DNA of 64,000 nucleotides from Dictyostelium discoideum (taxonomy: Eukaryota), in contig CM000154.2 in NCBI GenBank assembly GCA_000004695.1, positions 1,568,001-1,632,000 on the forward strand, read 5' to 3'. The position numbers were made by a program, and so were the translations under genes. Of this stretch, positions 7,886 through 39,359 are shown in pieces. Each line of letters begins with the position of its first letter. The first letter of the stretch is position 1. The notes under the pieces are model-generated. The model was not told where the DNA came from. It saw only the letters and a list, made by a program, of their open reading frames with translations, and did no database searches.

Positions 7886-10800
7886 ATGAAGTATTCAAGT
7901 TTTTTATTACTTTTTATATATATATTTTTTATTTTAAATAATGTAACTTTTTAAATTTGGACTTTAAAAAATAAAAAATAAAATTAATATAGGATTTATT
8001 AATAGTTTAATAATTATTTTAATTAGATAAATGCTCAATCATGTCCATCTACTAGTTCAACATGGAGACCAACAATGGCATCATTTGTAACACCAACATC
8101 TCCATCAATTGCAACAATTCAACCACAATTAGACTTTTTATTAGGTAAAAATAATTTGGTTTTTATGGGTCAATATGGTTACTCTGCAACTTCGATTACT
8201 GATGGTCCAACAGGTGTAGCAAATTCATTCACTATGAATTATGATACTTGGGGTCCAGCAATGCATTGGTTGGTTGTAAAGACACCTGTTCCCGCTCTTA
8301 AAGCAAATCAAAACTATGAATTTAGTTTTGGTTTTAAATTGGGTCAAGTTTTAGGTAGCTATAATAAAATTGCAAGTATTTCAGTAAACTTTTTTAATCC
8401 AGCCGATATTACAGATCCAAATGGAGGAAGTCAATATTTTGTAACTCCAGCACACCCAGCAGTATATAGTAAAACCGTTACCACTGGTTCGTGGACTTCA
8501 TCTACAACATTTGCCCAAAACATCATTACTCTTACACCTACTGTTGATATTGGTTTATCAATAATGGCAATTCAAATTACTCGTACCTCCCAAACTGGTC
8601 CAGCTATTACCACTATGTTTGTTAGTAACATGAAATTATCAATTCCATCCAGAACCGTTCCAGCTCCACCAACCAACTTAATTACCAAAGATTCCGAATT
8701 AATTGCTATTCCAAAACCATTATCAAGTCTTGATGCTCAAGATTCAACAACATGTCCATACTTAGCAACCGATTTAGTTCACTGGCACGACCCAACAATT
8801 TGGACTAGTGGTGTTGTACCATTACCATCAACTTCATCAAACATTATCATACCAGCAGGTAAAAAAGTTTTAATCTCACCATGCTCAATCAACCAAACCG
8901 GTATTTATCAAAAAATTACTATCCCAGCAACTTCTGAATTAATATTTGCAGATGCAAGCTTAACAATGAATATTCAAGATATTTATGTCCAAGGTAAATT
9001 TATCATGGGTACAACTAAATGTCGTTACAATGCCAATATTAATATTGTATTCAATGGTGCAATGACAACTGTTGATACAATTGCTCAATATTTTGGTTCA
9101 AAAGGTATTGCTGTTGCTTCAGGTGGTTTTATAAGTGTTCATGGTAGACAATACCATAATACTTGGACTAAATTGGCTGCCACTGCTTGGTCTGGTGATA
9201 ATGTTATCTATATTCAAGATGATGTTAATTGGATTGTTGGACAACAAGTTGTAGTTGCAACAAGTGTTTATCAAGATGAGAAATATCCAGAGAATGAAGT
9301 AATGACAATTGCTGCCATCCAAGGAAAAGTTATACAATTCACTGAACCACTTAAATACTATCATTATGGTGGTCAAGAATATCAAGCTGAAGTCGCTCTC
9401 CTAACAAGAAATATCGTTTTCCAAAGTGAGTCTTCATCTGCTGCTTCATCATTTGGTGGTCATGTTCTTGTAAGTGGTGAAGGTCAGTTTGCTGGTATTC
9501 AACTCATTCGTATGGGTCAAAGAAACATAAAAGGTCGTTATCCATTACATTTCCACATGGCAAACACAGTTAGCAAATCCTACATTTCTGATTGTTCAGT
9601 AGTCAGTAGTTATTATCGTTGTTACACAATTCATGCCACTAATAATGTAACTGTTACAAGAAATGTTGCATTTGATGTAAATGGACATTGTTATTATTTA
9701 GAAGATGGTGTTGAAATGGATAACACTCTTTCATTCAACTTTGCTTCATATGTTCATACGATTGGAACTCCAGCAGCAGGATATAATCAATATGGTCAAG
9801 ATTTTACCCAATCATCTTCACTTGCACAACCAGCTGATGTTGCTGCTGGTGGTTTCTATATTACAAACGCATGGAATTCATTTATTGGTAATGCAGCAAG
9901 TGGTGGTTGGGCAGGTTTTTCATTCCCAAACTTAGACGCACCAATTGGTAATTCAATTAATGTTCCAATCGTTCCAAAACAATTCACAACTAAAGTTTTC
10001 CAAGGTAATACAGCACATTCAAGTGGATACTTTTTTGAATTTGGTTCATCCATTTATGTAGGAGGCGATTTATCAACAGGATCAGATGGTTTATTGGTTT
10101 ATAATAGTGGTAGAATTTCAAGAGAAACCTATTTAAATGGTGTTGAATCTGGAGGTGAAATTTGGATGAGATTTAACAATACAAAAGTTTATCTTTCCAA
10201 TAGGGGTATTGGTATGTGGGGTGAACGTGTTGAAGTTATTTTATTAGAAAGTCATGACTCCATTCGTCCAGGTTCATTATTTGGTGAAGCATGGTTATCA
10301 GATGCAATTGTAAATGGTCAAACTGGTAATTTATTGTCTAAAACCACTGATTATTCAAGACAAGGTTTCCAATTTTATGATACTTATGTAAAGACAATTT
10401 TAACCAATATCATTTTCAGAAACTTTGTTCATAATCCATTATCAACAAGTCCAGAAGATGACAATAGAGTGATCATCAGTATGACCCATTCCGATGAATT
10501 TAAACCACAATTTATCTCTGCTACAAAGAATATTACCATTCAAGGTACAGCTGTCTCTCAATATATTGGACATCGTATTTTTGATACTGGTTCAAGTCGT
10601 CAATTTAATTTTGTAGATTATGACGGTACCATTTCAGGTAGAAGTGTTCCAACTATTTTTGGCGCACATGATAAATGGTGGCAATTCGATAACACTTGTA
10701 CATACAATAACGATTGGAATTCTTGGGTTTGTAATAAGGGTACTTATGAAGTTGCAAGTGTATCTGTTGAAGTACCAGGCTATATGGATCGTTCAGGTGA

Positions 10801-20567: not shown

Positions 20568-20757
20568 TTTAATATCCTTTCTTTTATAAAAAATGAATAA
20601 TAAATAAAAATTATTGTTTTTTATTTTTTTTTTAAACTAAATCATTTTTAAAAGTTTTTTTCCAAACATTATCACCAACATTGTATAATGGAACCAGGGT
20701 TTGAGTTTATAATTGATTCCTCAAGAAAATCGAAATAATAATTATTTACCAGATTAT

Positions 20758-20797
<40 letters not shown>

Positions 20798-21055
20798 TAA
20801 TAAATCTTTGTACTTTAATGGAGATAGATAATTATTAATAAGTTTATTTATGGATTTTTAAGTTTTTTTTTTTTTAAATACCAGTAAAGTTAAATAAATC
20901 GATTTTTGATTATTTAAAAGAAGATGGTATTTTTTTTTTTTTTTTTTTTTTTAATATTGGATTAACAAGATTGATATATGTCCATCTGTGTTAATACGAG
21001 TTTTTATTTAATATTTATTTATAGGCTTATCATTTAAGCTGAAGGGTTATTTTAA

Positions 21056-22587
21056 TCATATGAATTGATCAAAAGATATAATATTTGGGAGAGATGATTC
21101 TGGAATACAATAGTAATTAGCTGTTGTTTTTCTTAGCTTAATCGTTGAGGTGAGAAGGATCTTAGGATCTTTGAAATTATTATGGTCTTTTGCTGATAAG
21201 TTTTTCAGATCTTTTGCTTTTTTGATGTATTCTAGAGTGGCCAATTTGTGCCATTTCTTTAGAAGGGAGCTGTATGATAATGATTCATTTGTTAAAGGAT
21301 CTTCACTGTATATTTGATTGCAAATCCAAATCCAAATGTTGTGGAGGATAAGGGCCATTAGGTTTCTATATGCGAATGATCTGGTTAGATCATAGTCTAT
21401 TGCTTTATAGTTCCATTCAAAGTATTCTTTGTGGAATCTGTGGTTGGCGTAATCTGCATTCACTTCTTGATCTTTTTTGGCTGTCGGTGATAATTTTGGA
21501 GTTATTCTATTAATGAAATTGTTATTTTGCCTAATTCTTGTATGATGCCAGTTTTTACCTTTGCCTGTGGTAATATAGATGAAATTTTTGAGTTTATTTA
21601 TTTTTATGAATTGTTTTGTTTTCTTGCATGAGAAGAACAGGTGACCGTATGGGTCTTTGCTCATATCTTCTTTGCAGAGTGGGCATTGTTTGTTGTGAAG
21701 GTAGTTTATTGGAAGGCATCTGGCATGGAATCTAAACATTGTGTCTCTTGTTTTAGGGTCTTTTATCTTCAGTATGTTGTTGAAGAGTTGATTATAGCTG
21801 TAGCCTCTTAAGTTTAGAGATGATTGGAATTCCGTTTTAGGGATGGTTGGATTTTGGTCTTGAATTGTGGTATACCATTCTGCCAGTGAAAGTGGTTGTC
21901 CATTTTCGTTTTTTATGGATGTGAGATTATTGTTGAAGATTGCTTTTTTGATTCTTATTTTGTTCCATTCGTCTAAGTTTTCTTTTAGGTATCTGGATGT
22001 GAATTTGTTTTTTTGGATTTGATATTCCCAGCTTTTGTGATGAGATGAGTTTGTTTGTTTGGTTTCTAGTGCTAGGATGAATTGGTTTATGATCCAAAGT
22101 TTCTGCGCCAGTTGTCTCAATTCTATATTCCAAATGTTCCAGCCCCCTACTTTTAGTGGGTATCTTGCTCTTTTGGTTCTCATTAAATTAATAACTTGAA
22201 ATCCACTAGCATTTTTGTTGTTTGGTGCCGATAAAAACCATTCGACTAATTTATTGATTTGGTTTAATTCCTCTTCCTTAAAGTTCTCTACATATGAATA
22301 GTAGGTTAATTTAGAGAGTGCGAATGCTTTGAGGATGTTGGTTTTGGTTTTGATTGTTGAGTCAGTGGTTTTCCATAGTACTAAGGATGATCTTATTGTG
22401 TTTAATATTTCTGGCATTTTTCTTGTTATCCCTTTGCCTGTGAAGAAGTATCCCAAGTATCTTTCTGGATTTGTAGATATTGGAATTCTTTGGTTGGTAT
22501 TGTCTGGGTTGCCTATAAGAATTGATGAAGATTTGTCGATGTTTAGTTTTGAGGAAGTGGCTTTGCAAAATGAATTGAAGTGTTGTA
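21056..22587 (-). CDS. Retrotransposon ORF2, C-terminal portion (the N-terminal endonuclease/RT core is presumably lost in the gap)
   Basis: The frame is open from the gap edge: ...QHFNSFCKATSSKLNIDKSSSILIGNPDNTNQRIPISTNPERYLGYFFTGKG...CPLCKEDMSKDPYGHLFFSCKK.... It lies downstream of ORF1, as is typical for a LINE. Confidence 0.65.
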
Positions 22588-22687
22588 NNNNNNNNNNNNN
22601 NNNNNNNNNNNNNNNNNNNNNNNNNNNNNNNNNNNNNNNNNNNNNNNNNNNNNNNNNNNNNNNNNNNNNNNNNNNNNNNNNNNNNNN
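22588..22687. other. Assembly gap (100 N)
   Basis: Run of exactly 100 n inside the retrotransposon. Confidence 1.
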
Positions 22688-23769
22688 TGGTTGACTTCAT
22701 TGTTTGACTGGATTTCCTCGTTCTTGCGTTTATGTGATGGAGGGATGTTTAGTGTCTTCTCTCTGTTTTCCGAGGATGAATGGATGTTAGTGCTTGTTTT
22801 GTTGGCATTGTCTTTTTGGATGGCGTTGGATGTTGTGGTAGTGGTTGTGGTGGGTTTGACAGATTGAGATTCTGCTGGGTTTTTGGGGGGAAGAGGTTGA
22901 GATGACTTTTTTGCTTGGGCTTTTTTCTCTTGTGTTGATTGTTTATCAGACTGATTGTTTGCTGGGTTGTTTGTTTGTTGTTGTGGTTTTGGTTGAGAGG
23001 ATTTGATTGCTATCCTGTTTTGGGTGTTAGGAGGATCTGTCATCTCATCTTCTAATGGTTCCTCCGTGTTGTTTGTCTCTACTTTCTTGTTTTTCTTTTG
23101 TGAGGAGTAGGTTTTGGTGGCCGTTCTGATGGTAAAGTTTGCGATTTCTGTAATGTGTTGGCCAGATTTCATTTGATCGCCTATTTTGCATTCTATTAGA
23201 CCGAATACTATGAGGTGGTCGGTGGAGTATATAGTATTGTATATTGCATAGGGTATTTCTTCTGCAAAGGCAGTTTTGATGAGGGCGTCCACTATTCCTG
23301 CCTTTTCTCTGGGAATTCTTACTCTTCCTGTGAGGACGTGGAAGTCTCTACTGGAGGTGATGAAGGTTCCCAATTTGCTTCTATCTCTAATGATATTTAG
23401 GAGAGATTGTTCGTTTTTAATCATCAGGTGGATCATTTTTCTAGTTCCTTTGCCTATGTATATCTTGTCGATTGGGATATCGTAGTTTGAGAGTGTTTTT
23501 CTCATTTCTTCTAACCCCTTGAGATCCATTTTGGGGAATTCGAGTGTAATTGGGTAGAATCCGTTGTTCTTCTCGTAGGTTGAGAGCGCAGTCATGTTCA
23601 ATATGGTCTCGCAGTATTTGGAGATGTCTTTGAGGCCTATTGATAGTTTGGGGTAGGTCTCCTTTATCTCTGCTGTTTTTGTGGAGAATTCCTTAATGAA
23701 GTTCTCCGATGCCTCGTCCATATGGGTGGAGGGGTTGGCCATTTTAGCCGCGTCTGCGTAGGAATTCAT
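22688..23769 (-). CDS. Retrotransposon ORF1 (the frame stays open into the assembly gap)
   Basis: The ORF starts MNSYADAAKMANPSTHMDEASENFIKEF...HVLTGRVRIPREKAGIVDALIKT..., followed by a low-complexity Q/T/K-rich tail. It runs into the Ns at 22687. Confidence 0.65.
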
Positions 23770-24073
23770 CTCGATGGGATTCCTTTGAATCGGCGATTTG
23801 GTAAGTTAGATCTGTAGATCGTGGTGGATTGGTGATTTTTTTTGAAAGATTGGTTAAAATTGACCGAGATTAAGGATAGAAAAGGATGAATTACTTTTCA
23901 CGTGTATCTTGTATCCTCTTGATCGCGGTACGGGTTTTTTAAGATGGTATTGATCTATATCAAATAGTCTTCTGATTGTTTGTAATATGGTGAAATAATA
24001 AACAAAATTTGGTTACGCAGTTGTTTTAATAAGGAATCGATCATGTATACTTAGGTATGGTCCTATAAAATTT

Positions 24074-24146
24074 CGCCTAGACATGGGATCGAACCATGGA
24101 CCTAGCGGTTAACAGCCGCTCGCTCTGCCTACTGAGCCATCCAGGC
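24074..24146 (-). tRNA. tRNA-Asn (anticodon GTT), 73 nt
   Basis: The minus-strand sequence is GCCTGGATGGCTCAGTAGGCAGAGCGAGCGGCTGTTAACCGCTAGGTCCATGGTTCGATCCCATGTCTAGGCG. The 7-bp acceptor stem pairs (one G-U). The anticodon loop is CT-GTT-AA. The T-arm is CCATGG-TTCGATC-CCATG, which includes the B-box GGTTCGATCC. A T4 terminator follows directly 3'. Confidence 0.95.
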
Positions 24147-24197
24147 ATTTTTATATTTTTTTATAAATTTAGCTCCTTCTGATTTTTGATAAAGAAA

Positions 24198-24236
24198 TAA
24201 TAATAATAATAATAATAAAAAAATAAGAATAACAAG

Positions 24237-24278
<42 letters not shown>

Positions 24279-24333
24279 ATAAATAAACTCTCCTAGAACA
24301 CACTCAAATTGAGTGATGTTATTAAAAAAAAAA
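24198..24333 (+). mobile_element. 5'-truncated retroelement 3' end (or retrocopy) ending in oligo(A), flanked by the TSD
   Basis: ...ctataaataaactctcctagaacacactcaaattgagtgatgttatt followed by A10 and then the TSD. It sits at the TRE5 target position, in opposite orientation to the tRNA. Confidence 0.55.
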
Positions 24334-24348
24334 TTTTTGATAAAGAAA

Positions 24349-24440
24349 TGTATACGGCCATACTAGGTTGGAAACACATCATCCCGTTCGATCTGATAAT
24401 TAAATCGACCTCAGGCCTTCCAAGTCCAATTCAAAAAAAA
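24349..24440 (+). pseudogene. 5S rRNA retropseudogene fragment (5' ~75 nt of 5S rRNA) with oligo(A), flanked by the TSD
   Basis: tGTATACGGCCATACTAGGTTGGAAACACATCATCCCGTTCGATCTGATAATTAAATCGACCTCAGGCCTTCCAAGT carries the universal 5S features (GGCCATAC...CCCGTTCGATCTG...) and matches the Dictyostelium 5S 5' half as I remember it. It then breaks off (ccaattc) into A8 plus the TSD. Confidence 0.7.
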
Positions 24441-24461
24441 TTTTTGATAAAGAAAATTTAA

Positions 24462-24660
24462 TTTTTTTTTTTTTTTGATAAATTACCAAATAAGCTTTTT
24501 TTTTTTTCTTTCTTTATTTTAGCTCAAAGCAGATTTTTTATTTATAATGCCTTATCTATTTAAAAAAACATCTTTTATAAACCATCAAATAAGCTTTTTT
24601 ATATTCTTTTTTTATTTTAGCTCAAAGCCAATTTTTTATTTTGGTAATTTATTTCCATAA
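24462..24660. repeat. Two tandem copies of a ~95-100 bp unit (accaaataagctttttt...tttattttagctcaaagc(a/c)(g/a)atttttta)
   Basis: Direct comparison of 24470-24560 with 24578-24660. Possibly a retrotransposon 5'-UTR module. Confidence 0.6.
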
Positions 24661-24892
24661 TAATAAACATTGCACAAATTAGCTAGAATTTAAAAAAGAG
24701 AAAATTAAAAACTAACTCTTGAACGGACCAGAGAAATTTTAAATATCCAAATGAATTCCTTAAACAAATAAATAAATTAAGAAAATTTGTTTGAAAAGTT
24801 TATTGTATTCCAGAATAAGTGTTTCCAAGCATAGTATCCTTCGAGCAATTTAATAATTACAACTTATTATTGAATTTGTTTATTCAGAGGGT

Positions 24893-25020
24893 ATGTTGCC
24901 ATCATATAGAATAGTTCTGGATACTACTTCAATCACCATTACAAAGAGAGTAGGTGATAATGGATCTCCCTGTTTTACTCCTCTTTTTATAGTAAAGGGG
25001 GGTGTGGGTTTTCCATTGAT
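24893..25020 (-). pseudogene. Non-LTR retrotransposon reverse-transcriptase fragment
   Basis: The minus-strand translation PFTIKRGVKQGDPLSPTLFVMVIEVVSRTILYDGNIPSE* contains the LINE RT motif (compare L1 [23 protein letters not shown]). It is truncated on both sides. Confidence 0.65.
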
Positions 25021-25136
25021 TTTTATCCTGGTTTGAGTCTGTCAGTGGTTTCATAATTAGGTTTGTTAGGTTGGTGAGAACTTTGATATGTTGAAGCGTT
25101 CTAAGTATTGATTTGGAAAGAGTTATTTATCTCTGA

Positions 25137-25190
25137 TTTTTTTTTTTTTTTTAATATTATAAAATCAGTGTTTATCCATTAAAGGAAATA
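25137..25190. repeat. Left copy of ~45-bp inverted repeat: T16 TAATATTATAAAATCAGTGTTTATCCATT
   Basis: The reverse complement matches 29476-29525 (AATGGATAAACACTGATTAAACAATATTAA A15) at ~33 of 38 positions, plus the homopolymer tail. Confidence 0.7.
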
Positions 25191-25379
25191 AACATTAAAT
25201 AATAGTTTTATTTATGAATTTTAATTTAAAAAATAAAGTGGTTATTCTTTTTTAATTTGAGTTATCAAAGAGTTTTAATTTTAAAATGAAGTGTAGTTAA
25301 AATTGGTTTTGTGAATTGTTCGATTGGGGTTAGATATAATTTCAGTTATTTTTTTTATTTTTTTTTATTTTAGTTTATG

Positions 25380-25613
25380 ATAATGAAAAGAGAGAATGAA
25401 TGTATAGAAAATGGAGAAAAAAGAAATAATGTAAATTCATTTAATAGAATCATTAAGCTAACAGTAACTGATGGTATTGAATATAGTGAATTATTATTTT
25501 GGAAGATATTTAGAAATATAGTGACAATAAAATAATAATGTCAATTATTTCTTTTTTATTTCCAAGATATATTTTCGCAATTTTTTTATAATTTCTTTTT
25601 ATTTTTTAATTTT

Positions 25614-25650
<37 letters not shown>

Positions 25651-25790
25651 CATGTATTAATAATAATGACCAATCAGATTCAGCATCTCCTTCAATTACC
25701 ATTCAAGATATTGAAACATTTATAAAAATAACACCAAAAGAAAAATTAAAATCAACATTAGAAACCCAATAAATTCCAACTTTAATAATA
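25380..25790 (+). pseudogene. Partial upstream duplicate (pseudogene) of the 5' part of the 26285 gene
   Basis: 25375-25525 is ~95% identical to 26275-26425 (MKRENECIENGEKRNNVNSFNRIIKLTVTDGIEYSELLFWKIFRNIVTIK* versus the intact MKRENECKENGEKRNN...). 25660-25790 matches 27290-27415 (DQSDSASPSITIQDIETFIKITPKEKLKSTL). The copy is internally deleted and stop-containing. Confidence 0.8.
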
Positions 25791-25964
25791 ATTATCATTA
25801 TTAATAAGTTATAAAAAAAAAAAAAGGCGCTCTTTTGAATAATCAAAAAATGAAATGAATTATTATTATTATTATTATTATTAATAAGTTATAAAAAAAA
25901 ACAATGGGAGAGGGGTGATTTTTACTTTTTTTTGTTTATTTAATTATTTAATTATTTAATTATT

Positions 25965-26125
25965 TATCTATTAATTTGCATCCATATTAATTTCAGCAGT
26001 CATATTAATTTCAGCAGCCATATTAATTTGCAACCATATTAATTTCAGCAGGCTAAAATAAATATGACTATTAAGTTGCAGCCATATTAATTTCAGCAGC
26101 CATATTAATTTGTAACCATATTAAT
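25965..26125. repeat. Minisatellite: ~7 tandem units with core CATATTAATTT(CAGCAGC)
   Basis: catattaatttcagcagt catattaatttcagcagc catattaatttgcaac catattaatttcagcagg...catattaatttcagcagc catattaatttgtaac catattaatttt. It is GC-containing, unlike the surrounding DNA, and lies 150-320 bp upstream of the 26285 ATG. Confidence 0.85.
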
Positions 26126-26284
26126 TTTGGCATGGGACATTCAGTGCGAAAAAAAAAAATAAAAAAAAAAATAAAAAAATGAATAAAAAAATAAATAAAA
26201 AAATAAAAAAATAAAAAAATAAAATAAAAAATAGTATATTGCAACGTAATAAACTATTTTTTTTATTTATTTTAGTTTATAATA

Positions 26285-27059
26285 ATGAAAAGAGAGAATG
26301 AATGTAAAGAAAATGGGGAAAAAAGAAATAATGTAAATTCATTTAATAAAATCATTAAGCTAACAGTAACTGATGGTATTGAATATAGTGAATTATTATT
26401 TTGGAAGATATTTAGAAATATAGTGATCAATAAAATAATAATGTCATTCATGGATAAACGATTTACACCAAAATATAAAACAATTTCAGATGGAGCTGAA
26501 ATGATTCGAAATAATCAATTCAGTCTATTAAAAGATAAAATTAAAATAAATTGCAGATATTTACATTTTTATGACAAAAAAGGTTGTGAGATTGAAATTT
26601 TAAATAAATTATTCAAAACAATCATTAGCGATAATGAATTTTACAGAAAATTCTTTAGAAATCACCTTTTTGAATTTACTAATAGAAAAGTAATCATTTC
26701 ATTAATTACATCAAAGAATTTACAAGTATATCAAATATTTATAGAAGAGTTTAATCATATACCAACTGTTTATGATCTAAAAATAGCAATTTCAGTTGGT
26801 GCTAACAAATTCATTAGATATCTATTAGAACAATCACAACTAGAACAATCAAAATTTAAAATAAACATATCAAAAGATGATTTAGATAATTATAATTCAA
26901 TTGATACAATAGTTGCTCCAAATAAAGTTATTTCAAATTTAAGAAAAATTATTTTAAAAAATTCTTCTAAATTTTTTTTTCCATTTAAATTATTAAATTT
27001 AAAGAGAGATATGTTTAAAGGATTACTATGCTATTTTAATTGTTATCAAAGTTTAAGAG

Positions 27060-27155
<96 letters not shown>

Positions 27156-27770
27156 TTCAAGAACTAACGATTGATACTCTTTTGAGTATTCATTCGAATA
27201 GAGAAAATGAGTTGATAATAAAATCAACATCAACAATAAAATCACTAATTAGAGTTTGTATATTAATATTAAAATTAAAAGCAATGACGAAAACAAACGA
27301 CCAATCAGATTCAGCATCTCCTTCAATTACCATTCAAGATATTGAAACATTTATAAAAATAACACCAAAAGAAAAATTAAAATCAACATTAGGAAACCCA
27401 ATAAATTTCAACTTTAATAATAATGTCAAGTATGATGATGATGGTGATGATGAACAACGTTTTTCTAAATTAATAACATACCAAATTAAAGAATATAATA
27501 GTAATAGAAATAGAATACCACGGAAAGTATTCTATAAATCAAAAAGTGGTCAAATGGTTCAATTAATTTGTAAACATTGTGGAGATTCAAGCTTTACAAC
27601 ATTTTGTTCTTTTTTACTTCATTATCGATACGATCATTCTCGTATGGATTTTCCACAGTTTGAAGACGCCGAAGAAGTTAGTATTAATCCCGGTGGCGAG
27701 CTTGAAATATTATTATATACACCCGATTTAGACAGTAGTTTTTTCAAAAGATTTAATAAACAATCAGAAG

Positions 27771-27863
<93 letters not shown>

Positions 27864-29321
27864 GTTGTAGGTCTAATGATGATGATGATGAACATAAAAC
27901 CTTTATAAAGAAATTATTGGATGAATATTATTCAATATTTTGTAAAGATAGATCAGCCATTATATATTATTATTATTACGATGGATTTAATAATATCAAT
28001 TTAGAAAATAAAAGTTTATACAGTGTAGATTTAAAAGAATATTATGAATCATTTAGATTTGGAATTCCAACATTTGACTTGGTTGGTCATTTTCTTTATG
28101 ACCACCTTAATTTTATATCATTGATAGATATCATGAGATATCCAGATAAAAAGTCAATTTATATTTTATTCTCAAATTGTACAGATAGATTAAAAAAGAT
28201 TCAGTTTATAGATAAAACCATTCAATCAATAAAATCAAATGGTTTACGAAATGTTGAAAACCAATTAACGAATTTCTTTTATATGGTTGTCATGCACGAC
28301 GATTTAGAATTAATAAAGTATTTTTTCAAACAAATAAATGGTTATCAATTACATTTGGGTGGTGGGGGTGGAGATTTACATTACTTATATATGTTTAACC
28401 CAACAATTTATATTGGTTCGGTAGATGTTTTAAATTATTTATTTGAAAATCATAGAGAATATTTTATTGATGATAATTATAACTATTATTCCTATTTCAA
28501 GAATTTAAAATTATTAAAACACTTTGAAGCATTAACACTCAAAGTTCCATCAACATTAAGAATTTGTGAATACTTGGACCACTATACCAGAGGTGATAAT
28601 TTTCAAAATTATATATCACATATCATCAGAAACCGTTTGTATTTGAGTATTGATTTGATTGAATCAATTTTTTGTTTCTCTCCAAAGAATACATTATTCT
28701 CAACCAATTCTCTTCAATCTACAACTATTAATTTTAAAACATACAAACTATTAGCAAACATCTTTTTTTCACAAAAAAAACGCAGAACAATAAAAATTTG
28801 GCCATCACTTTACCAAAGATTTTTTAAACTTTTTAGATTGGATGTTTACAAATCATTTTAATAAAATGAAAAAAGGAGCAAGGTTTTTTAATTCGGATAA
28901 ACAGTTACAACTATTTCTTTTTCTAACTAACAGATTAAACATTGGTGACATTATTGATTTCGATGAACTTAGATTCATTGTTAATGATATTGAATTTTCA
29001 CCTAATATTCACCATTTGTTAGATTTGATGTTAAAAAATGTTAAAAATAATGAAATCTTTTTAAGGGTTCTAGAAATTGCTATTGTTAATTCAAGATTAC
29101 ATATTTTAGAATTTGTTAATGAAAACAGTGGCAACCTTTTAAAAGAAATAAAGAATCTTGGCGAACGATTTGATGTTTTTCTATATCGCGTATTTGAAGG
29201 TGATAATGTAAGGGTATCAGAATTTCTACTTCAATTTATCAACCAAGTAGATTCAGAAAAATTATTTGGTCCAAAATCATTATTATATATTTCAAATAAA
29301 TTAAAATCTTTAAATAAATAA
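26285..29321 (+). CDS. Orphan paralog-family protein (member A), apparently frameshifted: an 858-aa ORF plus a 159-aa ORF overlapping by 20 nt in different frames
   Basis: The N-terminus motif SELLFWKIFRNIV resembles EILFWKVYRNVY of the 1246-aa protein at 43473..47213. The C-terminal ORF (…RLHILEFVNENSGNLLKE…) resembles the C-terminus of that paralog (…RFKMLEILNENGFIKKD…). So the two ORFs are one gene broken at ~28842-28861 by a -1 frameshift or a sequencing error. It contains a C-x2-C...H-x4-H element (LICKHCGDSSFTTFCSFLLHYRYDH) and poly-N tracts. Confidence 0.55.
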
Positions 29322-29475
29322 ATAAATAAAAAAATTTAAAATAAAAATATTAACTGGGTTTAGAAAAAAAATAATTAAAAAATATATTATTAAGCAATTT
29401 CAAGTTGATCTGTGTAATCATTGATGCAGAATGGTCTGCAAAACTTTGGAACTTTTATCTTTGATCACTATCATT

Positions 29476-29525
29476 TAGTTTAAATGGATAAACACTGATT
29501 AAACAATATTAAAAAAAAAAAAAAA
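29476..29525. repeat. Right copy of the inverted repeat (a TIR candidate, or an inverted copy of a retroelement 3' stub)
   Basis: See the left copy. The similarity stops abruptly internal to CCATT on both sides. Confidence 0.7.
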
Positions 29526-30389
29526 TAACCATTCTCAAAAAAAAAAAAAAAAAGTGGTTAATTATTATTTTTTTTTTTTTTAATTTTGAAATTTTTTTAT
29601 TTGTTTTCAATATATTTTTTTTTTACTTCAAAACATAAAAATTCTCTTTAAAAATGGAAAGTAGTATTTCTAAAAAAAAAATTAAAGTTTTTGATGTAAG
29701 TAATCAGATTTTAAAAAAAAAAAAAAAAATATTAAGATTTCAAGATTCTAAGTGTAAAAAAAAAAAAAAAAAAAATAGTCTTATCATTTACATTCTAGAA
29801 CTGGTCAGAGATTTGTTTTTGCTACATTTTTTATTTTTATCTTTGATTATTTTAAAAAATAATCGAAATCATGTTTAAAAAAAAAAATCAAAAGTTAAAA
29901 AAAAAAAAATAAGAAAAAAAGGAAATAAAAGTAGTCCAAAATAAAAGAAATATTAAAAAAAAAAAAAAAAAAATAACAAATCAAATTTTAAACGAGATTT
30001 TTTAAATCATAAGGAAAATATTTTAAAATAAACATGATAGAATAAAAAACATATTTTTAAGACAGGGGATAGGTATCGAGCTACAATTATCTCTTTTATA
30101 TCTCTTTCACCCACTTTTTTTTTTTTTTTTTTTTGTTTTTTTTTTTATATTATTTTTTTTTTTTTTTTTTTTTTTTAATGAACCAGTTATTATAATATAC
30201 ACTTTTTATAAATAACTTTTATTAAAAAGAGTAATTTAATTATTTTTTAAATTTTATTTAATTTTTTTTTTTTTTTTGGATAAAATAAAAAAAAAAAAAT
30301 AAAAATTGACAATATAAAAAAGAATTTTTTTTTTTTTTACAATTATTTGTATTTAATAATAATTAAAATAAAAAAACAAAAAATTAGAA

Positions 30390-30713
30390 ATGGCAACAAT
30401 AAAAACAAATGAAACTGATAATAGATGGAATTTTTTAGATAACCAAATAAAAGAATATTTAAAAGAAAAACAAGAAAAAGTAAAACAAATTGGAAATTCA
30501 TGGGAATTTGTTGAACAAATTTATCCTCATTACAATAAAATTGATAATATTAATTATAAAAGAATCGATTTTATTAGAGATATTAAACCAATTTTTATGG
30601 TATGTAAATATTTTTTATTTTTTATTTTTTTTTTTTTTGATGTAAATATTAATATTTTTTATACTAAATTAAAGGAATTTTGCTATAAACATAAAATTAA
30701 TCCGGAAATATAA
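30390..30713 (+). CDS. Small hypothetical protein (~82 aa), two exons: join(30390..30599,30675..30713)
   Basis: The ORF MATIKTNETDNRWNFLDNQIKEYLKEKQEKVKQIGNSWEFVEQIYPHYNKIDNINYKRIDFIRDIKPIFM ends at GTATGT. After a 75-bp intron an AG acceptor gives, in phase 0, EFCYKHKINPEI*. Confidence 0.45.
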   Translation: MATIKTNETDNRWNFLDNQIKEYLKEKQEKVKQIGNSWEFVEQIYPHYNKIDNINYKRIDFIRDIKPIFMVCKYFLFFIFFFFDVNINIFYTKLKEFCYKHKINPEI

Positions 30714-31422
30714 TAATTTTCCTGAATTGAAATATAATAAAAAAAAAATAATAAAAAAAAAATAAACAAATATGACATCTTTTTTTTTTTTTTAAAAAAA
30801 AATCATTCTTTTTAATGAACTATTTGTTTCAATTAATATATGATATAGAACTATTAAATAATTCTCAAATCTAAGGTAATTTTTTTTTTTTTTTTATTTT
30901 TTTTTTTTATTTTTTTTTTAGTTTAAACAAAAATATCAATTTAATAGATCCTTTTCAAATAAAAAATAACATTGAGTATTAATTTTAATTTTAATTTTTT
31001 TTTTTTATTAAATTTTATTTTTTTTTTTTTTTTTTTTTTAGAACTATGATATGAAGTCTGGATATTTTTTTTTTTATATTTTTTTTTATTTTTTTTTTTT
31101 TTTTAAAACAATTTTTTTTTTAAAAATTAATTTTTTTAAAATACTAAAAAGGAAATTTTGTTTATTTATAGAAATTTTTAAGGAATCTAAAGTAAAAAAT
31201 CTTTTGTTGTTTTTTTTATTTTTTTATTTTTTTTTTTTTTTTATTTTTTTTTTTTGGAAATTGGTTTAAAAAAAAAAAATCCAAGTATTTTAAAATCATT
31301 AAAATAATTATCATTTTAATAAAAACCAACAAATAAATATTCTATAGAATAATTAATTAATAATTAAAATTAAAAAAAAAAAAAAAAAAATATTAAATAA
31401 TAATAAAAAAAAAAAAAAAAAA

Positions 31423-32265
31423 ATGTCAACAATGTATGCACGAGAATATGCTGGAAATCCAATTAAACCAGATGTTAATATCTTTCAAAATAAATCATTT
31501 AAACAAGGTGAAAAACCAAAAAAGTTGGATGAAGATTATTTCCTCTACTCGTTGAAATCTCTTTTCAAAGATAATTTGAATGAATATCCAGGTAAACAAT
31601 TAGACAGACCAAACAAACTCGATATTACCGCCGCCGATGATAGAGAATTGAATTTTCTTGAAGAGAAGAAATGGGATGAGAAAGAACTCCTTAAAGAACA
31701 ACGTGCTGAAACATTCAAGAATTTCACCTTCCCACCACATATGTCAATCCAAGAGAAATGCGTAGACCAATTGCAACAAGATTACGACGATTTCCATATG
31801 CTTTGCTTAAGAGATATGTTCCGTGATAAAGAATGTGATTTGGAAGGATTTAGTCGTACACCAGCTCAAGATAAAGATGAACTTAAAGAAATGAATCTTA
31901 CTCATGAATCATTACTAAAGGAGAAATCCAAACTTCCATTAAAGAAACAACAACAAAATAAATCCTCAAATAAAATCAATGGTAAATTAAATAAAAAGAA
32001 AATCTCACCAAATCAAAAGAGAACAATTATCCGTCAAACTAAAACTACAACAACAAGAATTTTTAAAAAACCAATCTCCTCAATGGAACCAATTACAAAA
32101 ACTGAAATAACCTCAAAAACTATTACTAGACCTGTAACTGAAATTCCTTCTAATGATCCAAAATCAAAACCAAAATTATCAACTCAAACAAGTTATTCTG
32201 TCGACCTTTCACACTTAAATAATAACTCTTGGGTTTGGGATAATGGTGAAACTAGAAAATTATAA
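31423..32265 (+). CDS. Hypothetical protein, 280 aa, charged/low-complexity
   Basis: Single [24 protein letters not shown]...[11 protein letters not shown] with typical codon usage. No family recognised. Confidence 0.5.
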
Positions 32266-32275
32266 AACTAAATAG

Positions 32276-32337
<62 letters not shown>

Positions 32338-32466
32338 TATATTGTTTGTTATTTTCTCAAATTCATTTAATCATTTTAATTAGTAAATAAATAAAAAATT
32401 TATATTGTAAATAAAAAAAAAAAAAAAAAAGATTTATATTTTAAAAATTAATTGTTTTTTATTTAT

Positions 32467-32764
32467 TTATTTATTTTTATTTGATAAAATTTTTTTAAAT
32501 TCTTTAATTGAAACCCATTCTTTAAGATAAATAAAAGTACAAGTTTGAATAAAACAAATTATACCAATTAATAAATGGATACATGTTGATTTAAAACTAA
32601 CAGCATTATATATATACTTATTTGATAAATTTGTAATTATAAATGATATTATAAATGATAATAATACCATTTTATTTGGTATCATATTTGATAATTTAAT
32701 ATCTTTAATATTTTTAAAAAATGATTTCATAAAATAAACACTATAAATAATTCTTAATAACATA

Positions 32765-32797
<33 letters not shown>

Positions 32798-33249
32798 AAA
32801 ATAAAATAAGTGTGTTAATATAAAATAATATTAATATTTAAAAATTATTTTTTAAAAAAAATAAAATCTTACTTAAACAATTTGCTAAAATAATACCAAT
32901 ATTTTGAAATAATTTACAAAATATTAAAGTGAATAATAAGTAAATGAAACCAATTATAATTAATACCCAATTAACAGTTTTTAATTGATCTTCTTTTGCA
33001 ACACTATGAACAAATGATTCAGAAACACCATTAATTGCTAAAAATCCAACATAAATACAATAGAAACCTAATAAAACACCAGCATTTGTATCTCTAAATT
33101 TATTATTATATAATAAATTTAATAATAAATGTGAAAAACCTGGTCCAAAACAAGTAAAAACTAATGAAACTAAAATTAAAAATTTCATAATTACAATTAA
33201 TACATTCGCACCATTTTTAAAATCATCATTATTATTATTATTTTCTTGA

Positions 33250-33308
<59 letters not shown>

Positions 33309-33708
33309 GATTGTTGGAAATAATTTTGGAAACATTAAAAAACAAGTTTCTTCAATTGGTAAAAATAAAAATCTAACAATTAATGAACCTAAATTTGATA
33401 CGATTGCAAAAATAGCTTGACCTTGATTTGTCTCTGAAAAGAATAAAACAAATTTTTCACCCTCTTGTAATAATAATTTATAAATTGATTGCCATGTATA
33501 AAGTAATGATAATTTAATTAAATTTCTATCAATTCTAGTTGAAAATTTTGGAAATAATTGATCAATTGATTTAAAACAATTTGAAAATTCTTTATTATCT
33601 TTATTTTTATTATTATTAATTATATTAATTAAAAAATATCCAAAATATCCAATTACTAATGTTAATGAATATAAAATTTGTGCATATCCAAATCCAATTA
33701 ATCCCATC

Positions 33709-33739
<31 letters not shown>

Positions 33740-34392
33740 TATATATATATATTAATATGTATATATTAATAATAAAATATAATAAATAAATAATTAATTA
33801 ATTAATTAATAATTACATTTAAAATTACAATAAAATAATAAGTTGAAAAAGTTTTAAAAAATAATGCAAAACCTTCAACTGTAGTTCTAATTTTAAAGAG
33901 TAATAAATTTTGAGCTAAAATATACATTGGTTCACTTAATAATTCTAATATTGAACTAATTGTAAATAATCTTAAACCGTAATGATAATTTAAGATTTCT
34001 AATGTTTCTTTTGTTGATGTGTAGAGGAAAAAGTTTTCAAAAATGATTGATAATCCAATACCAATTGGTAAAACTAACCATGATAAATTTATAACAGATT
34101 TTAAATTATTATCATTATTTAATTTATCTGTAATATTAACTCTTGTACATGCTCTTCTAATTGCTTCACGTGATAAAAATAAAATTATTGATGACAATAA
34201 TTGATATTGAATTGCTGATACTCCAAAAATACTATCATCAACTCCAACAATTACTAATGTATTAATAATAAATGTAAATAATCTTGATATAATTTGTAAT
34301 CCAATTAAATAGAATGCTCCAACTAAACCATTCTTTAATACATTTGATTCTGTTTGTGGTTGTTTCATTTTATTTTTTTGTTTATTCCTCAA
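32467..34392 (-). CDS. rft1: RFT1 homolog (oligosaccharidyl-lipid flippase family), three exons: complement(join(33828..34392,32873..33707,32467..32765)). The exon-1 donor could alternatively be at 33816.
   Basis: Exon 1 carries ...IIALFLSREAIRRA...LELLSEPMYILAQNLLLFKIRTTVEGFALFFKTFSTYYFI (compare human RFT1 ...TTLFLAREAFRRA...[42 protein letters not shown]). Exon 2 starts MGLIGFGYAQILYSL (human LPHLGLYIFSLAQLFY). Splice phases are consistent (0/0 and 1/1). The protein has multiple TM segments. Confidence 0.8.
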
Positions 34393-34407
34393 AAATTAAA
34401 AAATTAG

Positions 34408-34441
<34 letters not shown>

Positions 34442-34764
34442 AAATCCACCATCACAAATCTAAATCAAAAAAAAAAAAAAAACAGAATTTTCTTTTTCTT
34501 TTTATTATGATAAAGTATATTACAACTTTTAAGAAATTATTTTTTAATATAGTTTTTGATAATTATTTTTTTTTTTTTATTGTTTTTTTTTTTATTTTTT
34601 TTTTTTCTTTAAATAGAATTATACATTTGAAGATAAAAAGGTGGAGAAGGTAGGAAAAAGGAAGGAAGAGGAGGATTATTGTTATTACTGTAGTTTGTTT
34701 TTTTTTTTTTTTTAGTTTTTAATTTTTTAGTTTTTTTTTTTATTATTATTTATAATTATTATTA

Positions 34765-35564
34765 TTATTTATTTGATTTAATTAAACTAAAGAATTCAGC
34801 ACGAGTTCTAGAGTCTTTTTCAAAAATACCGCAAACAGATGAGGTGACAGTACTTGCACCTGGTTTTTGTACACCTCTCATAACCATACACATGTGTGAT
34901 GCTTCAATTACGACGGCAACACCCATTGGATTTAAGTGAGCTTGAATTGCTTGTGCTATTTGTCTGGTTAAACGTTCTTGAACTTGTAACCTTCTGGCAA
35001 AAATTTCAGCAACTCTTGCTAATTTACTTAAACCTAAAACTTTTTGATCTGGAATATAACCAATATGGCATTTACCATGGAATGGCACCATATGATGTTC
35101 ACATAATGAAAATATATCAATATCTCTGACAACAACCATCTATTTTTTTTGTAAAAATAAAAAATAAAAAAATAGTTAGTATTTATAGATCTATATAATT
35201 GTGTATGTTTATATATATAAAATTTTATATAAAAACTTACTTCATGATGATTTTCATTAAAAATTGCTTCACCAATAACTTCATCAACAGATTGCTCATA
35301 ACCTTGTGTAAAAAATAATAAAGCCTTTGACATTCTTAATGGTGTCTTTAATAAACCTTCTCTATCTGGATCTTCACCTAAACTACTTAATAATGTCTTT
35401 ACTGATGATTGCATTGTATTTAAAACTTCATGGTTATGGATTAATGGTTCTCTCTTCTTTCCAAAATCAACTAATTCCTTTCCTTTTCCATTTGATCTTT
35501 CATAAATTTCTTCATCTTCATTTTCAATATGATTATCTTGGTATGATTTTAAATTGTCACTCAT
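34765..35564 (-). CDS. gchA: GTP cyclohydrolase I. complement(join(35241..35564,34765..35139))
   Basis: Exon 1 ends ...[10 protein letters not shown] at GTAAGT. Exon 2 begins [30 protein letters not shown]...[26 protein letters not shown], the classic GCH1 core (compare [22 protein letters not shown]). The 101-bp intron is phase 0. Confidence 0.9.
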
Positions 35565-36183
35565 TTTATTTTATTTGTATATGTATATGTTATTATTGTT
35601 ATTGCTAAAGTTTTATTTTTGTATAAACAATAATTGTTGGATTTTTGAATAATTTTAAAAAAATAAAATATAAAAAAAAAAAAAAATAAATTGTCAGAAT
35701 TTTTTTAATTTAGAAAATAAAATAAAAAAAAAAAAAAAAAATTGAAATGAAATAAAAAAATAAAAAAAAAAAAATGAAATAAAAAAATATTAAAAAAAAG
35801 TTAAAAAAATAAAAAAAATGTGAAAAAATGATTTAATTAATGTTGGTTGGATTATAAAACTTAAGCATTAAAGAAGTAATTTTATGCGGCATTGGTGGGT
35901 TGGGCTCTTTCTTTTTTAAATTCACTTTTTTAATATTTATGATATGTTTATTTCTAATCTTTGGTTTTATTTATTATTTATTGTTATTTTTATTTTTTTA
36001 TCACTTTTTTTTTTTTTTTTTTTTTTTATTGGGCCAAAGAATGTGGTTGTGAAAGTATGAATAATTACATTTATAGAATAGTTTTTTTTATTTAATTTGG
36101 GTTTAATTTTTTTTTTTTTAATTTTTTTTTTTTTTAAAATTACATATATGTCGTGTTGCTTATAATTAGTTTTTAAGATTTCT

Positions 36184-36219
<36 letters not shown>

Positions 36220-36661
36220 AAAAAAAATTGTAGTATGAAAAAAAATGAAAAATTAATGAGAAAAAAAAAAAAAAAGAAAAAAATATTTTTCCTTTTTCTA
36301 GAACGAAAGAATGTTCCCAATTTTTTAAAATTTTTTTTTTTGAATTTTTTTTTTTTTAAATATCCCAAATATTCTGCAAACATTTTTTACAATTTTAAGA
36401 AAACCTATGGTTTATTTTTGATACCATCAAAAAAAACTAAAAAAAATTAAAAAATAAAAAAAAAAAAAAAAAAAAAAAAAACTATCAAGATATTTTTTTT
36501 TTTTTTTTATATCATCATAATTATCAAAACAAATAAATTTTATAAAAAAAAATATAATAAATAAATAAAAAAAAAAACAAAAAACACTAAAAATAGAAAT
36601 AAACTATCAAGATATTTTATTTTTTTATTCTTTTATTTTTTTATTTTTTTATTTTATTTTT

Positions 36662-37147
36662 TTATAAACCTAAATCTGATAAACTTGGATGATCATCAGG
36701 TCTTTTACCGCATGGCCAATGAAATAATCTTTGTGATTCACTAATTGAGAGATCATTTATTGATGCATGTCTTTGAACCATTAGACCAAATTCATTGAAT
36801 TCCCAATTTTCATTTCCATATGATCTAAACCAATTACCATTTAAATCTTTCCATTCATATGCAAATCTGACGGCAATTCTATTACTACCAGCTTGAAATG
36901 TCCACAACTCTTTAATTAGTCTATATTCAACCTCTTTTTCCCATTTCTTTTTTAAAAATTCAACAACTTGTGTTCTACCATTAATAAATTCATTCCTATT
37001 TCTCCATTTTGTATCCAAACTGTATGCAAGTGAAACAGTTTCTGCATTCCTTGAATTCCATGCATCTTCTGCCATTCTAACTTTTTTAATTGCATCTTCA
37101 ATATTATTAAATGGTGGTACTGGTAATTTTATTTCTTGCATTTTCAA
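36662..37147 (-). CDS. DUF1348-family protein (SnoaL/NTF2-like fold), single exon, 161 aa
   Basis: [134 protein letters not shown] matches the DUF1348 consensus as I remember it ([11 protein letters not shown].V.lAYT.DS.WRNR.EF..GR..I..FL.RKW..[13 protein letters not shown]..NRIAVRF.YEW.D..G.[12 protein letters not shown]...GLM..R.ASIND..I.E.eR.F.W). The consensus is recalled from memory and needs an HMM check. Confidence 0.75.
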
Positions 37148-37475
37148 ATTATTATTATTATTATTTTTATTATTATTTTTCTTTAAACTTTTCTTATTTT
37201 TTTATTTTATTATATTTTTCTCAACTAAAATACCTATATATATATGTTTTATTTTAATTTTAAAATTTTATTTTTTTTTTTAAAAATTAAATTGGATTCT
37301 GTTCTATTGATTCTATTAATCTTTGAATTTTTTGGATTAAAAAGAAAATTCTTTTTGTTGTCAATGAAAATAAAATTAAAAAAAAAAATCTTTTTTTATT
37401 TTTTTTTATTTTTTTTTAATTTTTTTTTTTAATTTCGACAAAAAAGTGTGTGTTGATTTTTTTTTTTTTTAATGT

Positions 37476-39192
37476 GTGAGGAAGATGATATCATATGAAT
37501 ATTGTGATAGTAGTGATAGCTTCTATTTTAATGATATTCAAGATTTTGATTTTAACCCATGGATAGAAGTAAAAAGTGTTTCTGAAAAAGGTAGATGTGT
37601 ATTTTCAAAGAAATTCATACCAAAGGGTACAATGGTATTTAGGGATATCCCATATGCCGCAATCGTTGATAATCAATTCAAAAGAAATATTTGTACAACT
37701 TGTTTTAAAATTTTATTAGAATCAAATAGACATAATTTTCAAACATGTCCTTCTTGTTTGTGAGTTTATTTTTTTTTTTTTTCTTTTTGTTTAATTTTTT
37801 ACCCCCTCCACCATTTAAAATTTTCCCACTAATCTATTTTTTCTTTTTTTTTTTTTTTAAATTTTTAGTCAAGTTAATTATTGTTCAAATTATTGTAAAC
37901 AGTATAGTAAAATTGAAACTAAACATACAGAATTAGAATGTAAATGGATTCAAGATTTCACAGTTTCATTTAAACATCAAATGGCAGAAGATGATAGAAA
38001 TATTGTATTATTAGTATTAAAAATTTTAGCTAGAAGAATTCATGAAAAACAATCTACAATATTTCATAATAAACCTTTAACAACCAATACTTTTGAAACT
38101 TGTACAAGTAATAATAATAATATAGACTTATTACCAATGATACCAAATGATATACCAGATTTAATTGATCATCTAGATGATTATTTCATTAATTCTAAAA
38201 ATAATAATGAATTTGAAAATGAAGAAGAAGAAGAAGAAGAACAAGAACAAAAAGGAGAAGGAGAACAAGAAGAAAATGAAAATAATGAAAATAATGAAAA
38301 AGTTAAAAAAAAAGTAATAATAATAGATGATAATGAAAAAGAAAAAGAAGAAATAAAGAAATTTAATAAAATTTGGAAAAATGATTTTAAAAGATTAATT
38401 AATATTGCCAAAGTTATTCAAATAATTATTGATGATTCAATAGATAGTTTGGAAAATATAAAATGTGATTATGGATTTGTTGATAATCAAGGTGATACTG
38501 AAATGGTTGATAATTCAATTGATCCAAAAGGATTAGATAAATTGGTTGATAATTTATCAAGTTCAGATTTAAATATCTTAAGATTATTATGTAAAATTAG
38601 AGCAAATTATTTTGGTTTATGGAATTCTGCTTATAAACCAATACCATTAAATTCAATTGATGATGATGATGATGATAATAATAATAATAAAGAGAAACCA
38701 AATAATGATTATTTATGGTGTGGATCTGGTGTATATTTAAAATTGTCATTATTTAATCATAGTTGTTTTCCAAATTGTACAACTTTAATTGAATATAATA
38801 TAAATAAAAAGAATAGTAATAATAATAATGGTAATAATGGTAATAATAATAGTTATGGTGATACTAATCAATTAACAATTTCAATTATAACATTACGTGA
38901 TATTGAAGAGAATCAAGAGTTATTAATTACTTATATACCTTTGAATCAAAAAATTAATGATAGAGTAAAGAGTTTAAAATCAAATTGGCTCTTTCAATGT
39001 GATTGTAAACGTTGTCATTTCGAAAAGATAAATGAAAATCAAACTGAAAAAATTTATAAAGATTCTTGTTGTACAAATCAAAAGTGTTCTGGTGGTTTAT
39101 TGATACCATTGGAACAAAATTCAACTCAAGGTATATGTAGAGTTTGTAAAAACACTTATACATTACCAACTGTATTCTATCCACTAAAATAA
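37476..39192 (+). CDS. SET and MYND domain (SMYD-like) protein. join(37476..37759,37869..39192)
   Basis: The MYND finger is split by a 109-bp intron (GTGAGT donor, phase 2): ...CTTCFKILLESNRHNFQTCPSC|FQVNYCSNYCKQYSKIETKHTELEC. The SET/post-SET region is ...LWCGSGVYLKLSLFNHSCFPNCTTLIEYN...ELLITYIPLNQ...WLFQCDCKRCHFEK. It has a long acidic/N-rich insert. Confidence 0.8.
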
Positions 39193-39200
39193 ACATGTAG

Positions 39201-39262
<62 letters not shown>

Positions 39263-39319: not shown

Positions 39320-39359
<40 letters not shown>

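Follow-up and report, generated by a model that had tools for sequence, protein, structure and literature searches.

The locus described here raises the question of how a piece of 5S rRNA came to lie in chromosomal DNA of Dictyostelium discoideum, upstream of a tRNA gene and between two copies of a short direct repeat. The 5S gene of this organism is carried on the extrachromosomal rDNA palindrome, as a preliminary description of the locus had stated and as the literature confirms (PMC2175303, PMC5911963). The piece was found in a stretch of 64,000 nucleotides, referred to below as the window, and its surroundings are listed in Table 1. Our answer is that the insert is very probably a chimeric retrocopy, composed of 5S nt 1-76, the last 7-8 nt of the LINE TRE5-A and an oligo(A) tract, and placed by TRE5-A proteins in one target-primed event.

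Table 1. Features of the insertion site next to the tRNA-Asn gene, in window coordinates (TSD, target-site duplication).
Feature	Position	Strand	Remarks
tRNA-Asn(GTT) gene	24074..24146	-	Rfam tRNA 64.3 bits; ARAGORN; 5' end (24146) towards the inserts
TSD copy 1, TTTTTGATAAAGAAA	24183..24197	+	exact match; 37-51 bp upstream of tRNA nt +1
Element 1, 136 bp, poly(A)-ended	24198..24333	+	ends GATGTTATT-A10
TSD copy 2, TTTTTGATAAAGAAA	24334..24348	+	exact match
Single extra T, 5' junction	24349	+	non-templated, or a chance match to position -1 (T) of the 5S gene in rDNA
5S rRNA nt 1-76	24350..24425	+	75/76 vs L001; Rfam 36.4 bits
CCAATTC, last 7 nt of the TRE5-A C-module	24426..24432	+	same terminus in L002, L006 and L008
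A8 tail	24433..24440	+	read as the TRE5-A oligo(A) where reverse transcription began
TSD copy 3, TTTTTGATAAAGAAA	24441..24455	+	exact match

The identification of the 5S part comes from an ungapped alignment to L001:2073-2148, in which the two sequences agree at 98.7% of positions and differ only at nt 51 (G51->T). The match of about 75 nt to the 5' part of 5S rRNA that had been claimed earlier is thus borne out, at an identity above the 85% set as its floor. The reference is a complete 119-nt 5S gene (L001:2073-2191) on a metagenome contig, the one contig found when a metagenome collection was scanned with a 36-nt piece of the window fragment, and was taken as D. discoideum rDNA by assumption. 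This gene scores 95.9 bits against Rfam 5S_rRNA, has a T-run (TTTT) at its end, and presumably agrees with the published D. discoideum 5S RNA sequence. The window piece (E 3.6e-6) lacks the 3' 43 nt and for that reason falls just under the Rfam gathering score of 38. A 28-nt 5S probe has one match in the window and none in 100 shuffles. No second 5S fragment was found in the 259 kb of Dictyostelium DNA sampled, and the 5S pattern is, as expected, absent from 185,579 bacterial and archaeal genomes.

The boundaries of the piece are informative about its source. It begins precisely at mature nt 1, and its match to L001 ends at nt 76 and extends at most to one shared T at position -1. No rDNA flank lies beside it; L001 differs from the window on both sides of the 5S gene. 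The full 5S sequence continues after nt 76 as ACTCTGGTTGG, with no A-rich tract there (L001). According to the Rfam alignment and a ViennaRNA fold, the piece keeps the 5' strand of helix I, helices II and III, and the 5' side of helix V/loop E, lacks box C together with the 3' 43 nt, and breaks off at the border of loop E and helix IV, which answers the earlier suggestion that the breakpoint be set against 5S secondary structure. The combination expected of a functional gene (119 nt, box A/IE/box C, a T-run terminator and a score at the gathering level) is not found in it. The 76-nt piece is neither a 5S gene nor an rDNA segment, and it should be annotated as a 5S/TRE5-A chimeric retro-fragment, not as a 5S gene. 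There is no box C of the internal promoter and no C-module hairpin, and therefore neither 5S transcription nor re-mobilisation is expected; the chimera would be a non-functional relic for which no cellular function is anticipated.

The reference contig has a feature of its own. The spacer 5' of the 5S gene (L001:1-2070) holds about five repeats of ~370 bp, each with a GG(G/A)(T/C)TCGAAGTCGCACCC motif that is like a tRNA B box. This motif is reminiscent of the isolated B boxes described on the D. discoideum rDNA palindrome (PMC3159450).

The filler between 5S nt 76 and the A8 tail, CCAATTC, is the terminus of the TRE5-A C-module. The TRE5-A 3' end reads ...GCGTTATCCAATTC-An in three remnants (L002, L006 and L008) from two strains, and the terminus is directly followed by A10-A22 in all TRE5-A remnants sampled, so that TRE5-A RNA ends in ...CCAATTC-An. 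When T24425 is included, the match amounts to 8 nt, TCCAATTC, and overlaps 5S U76 by 1 nt. From base composition, the chance of CCAATTC at this place is about 3e-5. Among the 1381 runs of at least eight A in 238 kb scanned, six are preceded by it. Five of these six sites are found upstream of tRNA genes; besides the focal one, they comprise three in which the C-module homology extends further and an 8-nt mini-insert. The junction can be taken as a perfect match to TRE5-A, yet a short one of 7-8 nt.

The TRE5-A reference was rebuilt from genomic remnants and four published nucleotide positions, not taken from a deposited TRE5-A.1 record. Its most instructive part is another insert at the same tRNA-Asn gene in L008, in the same orientation, which consists of 133 nt and A11 and ends ...GCAACTAATAATTGCGTTATCCAATTC-An. 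This insert is flanked by a 14-bp TSD (TTTTATCTAATTTT) and is missing from the otherwise collinear L009. Its length fits the published 134-137-bp C-module, and the four residues that Siol et al. 2011 mutated in the C-module (PMC3159450), T15, C26, A35 and C38 when numbered from the 3' end, are all present in it. When its last 54 nt are folded with ViennaRNA, these positions fall in two separate stems that match the published stems I and III. The C-module stem-loops are essential: replacement led to no events, and stem mutations caused a 98-100% loss of activity (PMC3159450). The same terminus closes a B+C-module remnant that lies upstream of tRNA-Leu in TRE5 orientation (L002), and it occurs again upstream of tRNA-Glu (L006). 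The elements first considered as sources of a TRE5-A 3' end, in L002, L004 and L005, lie downstream of tRNA genes (TRE3-type).

At the target site, tRNA-Asn(GTT) is the Pol III gene that attracts TRE5-type integration. The TRE5 target window lies ~44-54 bp upstream of the tRNA gene (PMC5911963, PMC5391098); TRE5-A itself is always ~47 bp upstream, with its 5' end towards the tRNA 5' end, and makes TSDs (PMC5391098), and extra nucleotides are often found at its 5' junctions (PMC5391098, PMC3159450). Here, the integration position is 51 bp upstream of the minus-strand tRNA-Asn gene, the 5' end of the insert faces the 5' end of the tRNA, and the chimera has an exact 15-bp repeat on both sides (24334-24348 and 24441-24455). 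The chance of such a 15-mer at one fixed position is about 5e-8, as calculated from base composition. The chimera follows the TRE5-A rules of target type, orientation, TSD and extra nucleotide. The repeat around the 5S piece is identical over 23 nt, as the A10 tail of element 1 adjoins TSD copy 2. This means that A8 could be a tail of the insert's own or part of a longer, 23-bp TSD, and both fit this locus; the earlier report of an A8-ended fragment within a TSD stands with that second way of reading A8 added.

Some further repeats are present nearby. TTTTTGATAAA recurs at 24473-24483, 32 bp to the right of TSD copy 3 (within 24441-24483); it is probably ancestral low-complexity sequence, not another TSD, and a similar imperfect internal repeat occurs in diverged strains. 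The direct-repeat units at 24497-24543 and 24595-24641 of the window are a decayed second 5' half of tRNA-Asn in AX4. The diverged strains (L009:7792-7840, L008:7715-7755) have a degenerate copy of the tRNA-Asn 5' half and its upstream region, ~100 bp upstream of the real gene.

The course of events that would produce such an insert can be outlined as follows. Going by what is known of TRE5-A, TFIIIB and TFIIIC would direct the integration complex to a place ~50 bp upstream of tRNA-Asn, and the endonuclease, to judge by the junction, would nick the bottom strand at 5'-...ATCAAAAA/TCAG-3'. As the sequence shows, reverse transcription began at the oligo(A) tract of a TRE5-A RNA that was itself genuine, and copied A8 and (T)CCAATTC. 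The enzyme would then leave the TRE5-A template inside the C-module stem-loop structure, resume on 5S rRNA from nt 76 (or 75) and run to its 5' end. Since RNA 3' ends are where template jumps usually land, a 5S fragment with its end at nt 76 (or 75) most likely served as the acceptor. The junctions show that one extra nucleotide was then added and that a second-strand nick 15 bp away generated the TSD. A later TRE5-type event would have re-used the tRNA-proximal TSD copy, as the fixed distance from the tRNA suggests, creating the third TSD copy and pushing the chimera ~150 bp further from the tRNA. A start on TRE5-A RNA followed by a switch is the simplest course because an RNA of the form 5S(1-76)+CCAAUUC+An would be without the essential C-module structure.

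The junctions hold more detail on this course. The bottom-strand primer that they imply ends ...ATCAAAAA-3' and does not pair with poly(A), which fits initiation by protein-RNA recognition, not by annealing. Microhomology at the switch is at most 1 nt (T). Annealing of the cDNA to 5S CCAA (nt 71-74) was considered and rejected, since the product keeps both CCAAGT and CCAATTC. If the insert is a chimera, the 5S sequence of the palindrome is expected to have G51 and to be without ...CCAAGTCCAATTC; an rDNA palindrome sequence containing GGCCTTCCAAGTCCAATTC would indicate an origin at the DNA level.

The neighbouring insert, element 1, has an A-rich 5' part with a long A-run, followed by 48 unique nt with a hairpin among them (CACTCAA/TTGAGTG). 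In alignments to the TRE5-A C-module, its 3' 54 nt outscored each of 500 shuffles. The TRE5-A C-module itself was rejected as its identity: element 1 ends in GATGTTATT-A10, and the similarity is distant, though significant. Element 1 is C-module-like and could represent a TRE5-C-type 3' end, TRE5-C being the sole other family reported with a terminal C-module (PMC3159450). No second copy of it was found in the 259 kb sampled, and it is absent from L008-L010.

An arrangement of the same kind is seen in L002 (9250-9840, minus strand), upstream of tRNA-Leu (9872-9954), where four copies of a GCCAATACAAT-type repeat, GCCAAATACAAT, separate three poly(A)-ended inserts. These are a 37-nt piece (AAATTGCGTTATTCTGAAGAATAAAT-A8-GTG), a mini-insert of TT+CCAATTC+A22, and a ~480-bp TRE5-A B+C-module remnant. 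At TRE5 sites, serial re-use of one target position is thus a recurring outcome. Given that the tRNA gene is the point from which integration distance is measured, the chimera is probably the older of the two inserts in the window and element 1, nearer the tRNA, the younger. In the reverse order, which is also possible, element 1 would have come first, and the chimera would have entered the distal TSD copy, making a 23-bp TSD and bringing no tail. The mechanism would stay the same. The tandem identical TSDs at tRNA genes are explained by serial re-use of one TFIIIB-measured position. Of the repeats here, the preliminary description had recognised the pair around the 5S piece, which stands; it had missed the third copy (24183-24197) and the insert next to it.

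Two sites offer a view of how TRE5-A reverse transcription may break off. Between its TSD copies, the L002 mini-insert contains TT+CCAATTC+A22 only. At L006:8460-8560, the B-module runs at its end straight into the last 14-19 nt of the C-module (...ACATTCAAAATT|GCGTTATCCAATTC-A10), with an AATT microhomology at the joint; this has the appearance of an intramolecular template jump, or else of a deletion variant. Taken at face value, both would show the enzyme quitting the C-module template very early.

Orthologous loci in other assemblies were found through the protein DDB_G0288489 (ORF 31423-32265, strain AX4, exact) and the members of its cluster. The whole block recurs unchanged in L007 (GCA_054883475.1), an independent assembly of D. 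discoideum, but for one A-run that differs in length, and because two independent assemblies share the junctions, an assembly artefact is excluded. L008 and L009, labelled D. discoideum, and L010, labelled D. cf. discoideum, are ~86-90% identical to the window. The tRNA-Asn orthologue is present in L007-L010. No 5S piece is present in L008, L009 or L010, though tRNA-Asn and the flanking genes are kept; these strains are ~10% diverged. When 24198-24455 is removed, the window is collinear with L008-L010, and none of these strains, whose target sequence differs, offers an identical empty site.

The same comparison brings out other differences between the strains. L008 and L009 (GCA_054859385.1, GCA_054859355.1) show ~90% identity to window 29479-42156 over 13 kb, mostly genic. 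For assemblies labelled D. discoideum, ~90% identity to AX4 is a divergence far above within-species expectation. On the other side of the tRNA-Asn gene, window 20600-23950 (minus strand) is occupied by a non-LTR element with ORF1 at 22543-23769 and an ORF2 fragment at 21056-22456 that is 99% identical to DDB_G0285835. The element has an assembly gap in it (N run 22588-22687) and does not occur in L008-L010. It sits downstream of tRNA-Asn and is oriented like it, which is the TRE3 arrangement. Window 24885-29478 is a block found in the AX4 lineage only, in comparison with L008 and L009. It has a minus-strand reverse-transcriptase fragment at ~24860-25030 (RVT_1, E 2.5e-4), and 25352-25543 and 25665-25793 are partial copies of the 5' part of the ORF at 26285-28861, which continues out of frame in 28842-29321. 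In strain ACTFIW (L003), tandem paralogues occur on the same contig at a distance of ~77 kb. Homology searches with the 858-aa ORF were dominated by low-complexity candidates, and its C-terminal part returned one paralogue only.

Template switching is one of several ways in which such an insert could have been made. The final DNA would be identical if the RNAs had been ligated first, with a 5S fragment (nt 75/76, with a 2',3'-cyclic phosphate) joined to a TRE5-A 3' fragment in the manner of RtcB and a single template being copied afterwards. Prior ligation with RtcB is documented for U6/LINE-1 (PMC6789731), the debate over the U6/LINE-1 mechanism is mentioned in 10.1101/2025.02.02.635956, and an acceptor that ends within 5S suits an RNA fragment. 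However, the ligated RNA would be without the C-module stem-loops, the loss of which abolishes 98-100% of retrotransposition (PMC3159450), and the donor would have to be merely 7-8 nt with a short A-tail. The early exits at the same place, in the L002 mini-insert and the L006 jump, are also simpler to understand as polymerase behaviour, and prior ligation is judged unlikely. A classical 5S processed pseudogene is a good deal less probable still. It would require a truncated 5S RNA that was oligoadenylated as a decay intermediate or internally primed, with CCAATTC as filler or as a slipped copy of CCAAGT. Of course, an A-tail and a TSD are generic hallmarks of such pseudogenes, and CCAAGT resembles CCAATT. 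Against this, a random 7-mer would equal the TRE5-A terminus at ~3e-5 and would have to sit just where the terminus always sits, before an A-run; the 5S sequence after nt 76 (ACTCTGGTTGG) has no A-rich tract for internal priming; TRE5-A needs its own 3' UTR (PMC3159450); and the A-tail does not directly follow the source RNA, as seven TRE5-A nt intervene.

It is equally hard to credit two DNA-level events, in which a longer 5S retrocopy or rDNA piece was followed by a truncated TRE5-A (7 nt and A8) that inserted and deleted the 3' part of the 5S. Mini-insertions of 8 nt of TRE5-A tail and poly(A) do exist (L002), and target-site deletions are known for truncated TRE5-A (PMC3159450). Yet the same 15-bp TSD abuts 5S nt 1 and A8, so that both junctions belong to a single event; rDNA flank is lacking, and a 5S piece at -51 would itself require retrotransposition. 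Next to no likelihood attaches to a chromosomal 5S gene, whether functional or variant, or to an assembly artefact caused by contaminating rDNA reads. rDNA makes up ~20% of nuclear DNA (PMC3159450), so mis-joins are conceivable, but the same junctions appear in two independent assemblies, and a sub-gathering piece of 76 out of 119 nt, with no box C or terminator, does not suit a gene. Template switching by the TRE5-A enzyme is therefore preferred. The central idea of the preliminary description, an RNA-derived 5S fragment placed by the TRE5 machinery, is supported by the start at nt 1, the lack of rDNA flank, the position and orientation, and the TSD. Its phrase "polyadenylated 5S" is not the best one, as the tail and CCAATTC would come from TRE5-A RNA and not from an adenylated 5S RNA. 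As for the cause of the truncation, it had offered internal priming or template switching; the sequence after nt 76 speaks against the former, and CCAATTC favours the latter.

The nearest parallels are the 5S/L1 and U6/L1 chimeras of mammals, as had been noticed at the outset, and the likeness holds: a 5S copy is fused to a LINE 3' terminus within one TSD. In both, the 5' part comes from a Pol III RNA and is followed by the LINE 3' end and poly(A), the site is of the mobilising LINE's own target type, and 5S is usually truncated in the mammalian cases (10.1101/2025.02.02.635956). L1 chimeras with U6, U3, U5 and 5S have been catalogued, and ~10% of 253 primate chimeras involve 5S (10.1101/2025.02.02.635956). 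There are differences, however. TRE5-A is targeted to tRNA genes and needs its own 3' UTR structure, a need that L1 does not have, and the host is an amoebozoan instead of a mammal. The LINE part is 7-8 nt here compared to tens to thousands of nt for L1, and the 5S part is in sense orientation and ends at nt 76, while human 5S/L1 chimeras are mostly antisense and end at ~nt 46 and 90 (10.1101/2025.02.02.635956).

Other systems share some of these features. The MGL LINE of the fungus Magnaporthe grisea also makes template jumps in one integration, leaving directly fused cDNAs within one TSD, with other partners, among them WEIRD RNA and MGL, and without targeting of Pol III genes (PMC2104539). 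Within D. discoideum, 5'-truncated TRE5-A and the trans-mobilised non-autonomous TRE5-A.2 follow the same target rule (~47-51 bp) and orientation and have the same TSD, 5' extra nucleotide, oligo(A) and 3' terminus as the chimera (PMC3159450, PMC5391098). They are pure TRE5-A with a C-module, whereas in the chimera all but 7-8 nt have been replaced by host RNA. The 5S-derived SINEs (SINE3 etc.) also have a 5S head, a LINE tail and an A-rich end. Unlike the chimera, which lacks box C and the C-module hairpin and was seen once in the 259 kb sampled, they are multi-copy, with a full 5S promoter and a LINE tail recognised by the reverse transcriptase. No report of a TRE5-A chimera, or of a 5S pseudogene or chimera in Dictyostelium, was found in the literature searched, the older DRE/TRE5-A structure papers lying outside the search, and full-text searches for the 5S sequence and the element 1 3' sequence gave no match.

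Chimeras of small RNAs and LINEs are already known from mammals and fungi. What is distinctive here is a tRNA-targeting LINE that depends on its 3' UTR, a LINE part of 7-8 nt, and a 5S part in sense orientation to nt 76. As a natural record in sequence, the chimera documents how reverse transcription by TRE5-A starts and how it fails: the start of the enzyme on its own oligo(A) and last few nt is consistent with the experimental need for the C-module, and a jump to a host RNA follows. It extends LINE-driven RNA recombination from mammalian L1 and a fungal LINE to a tRNA-targeting element in a compact amoebozoan genome. The 5S gene is itself a TRE5-A target. One could consider, as a tentative and so far rather doubtful proposal, that the TRE5-A reverse transcriptase recurrently exits 7-14 nt into its own 3' UTR, within the essential C-module structure, and can then capture Pol III transcripts, such as 5S, that are concentrated at its TFIIIB-bound targets. 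If this is true, D. discoideum would hold a small unrecognised class of tRNA-associated chimeric retrocopies and mini-insertions, and with them chimeric retrocopies would be reported for the first time both in an amoebozoan and for a LINE dependent on its own 3' UTR.
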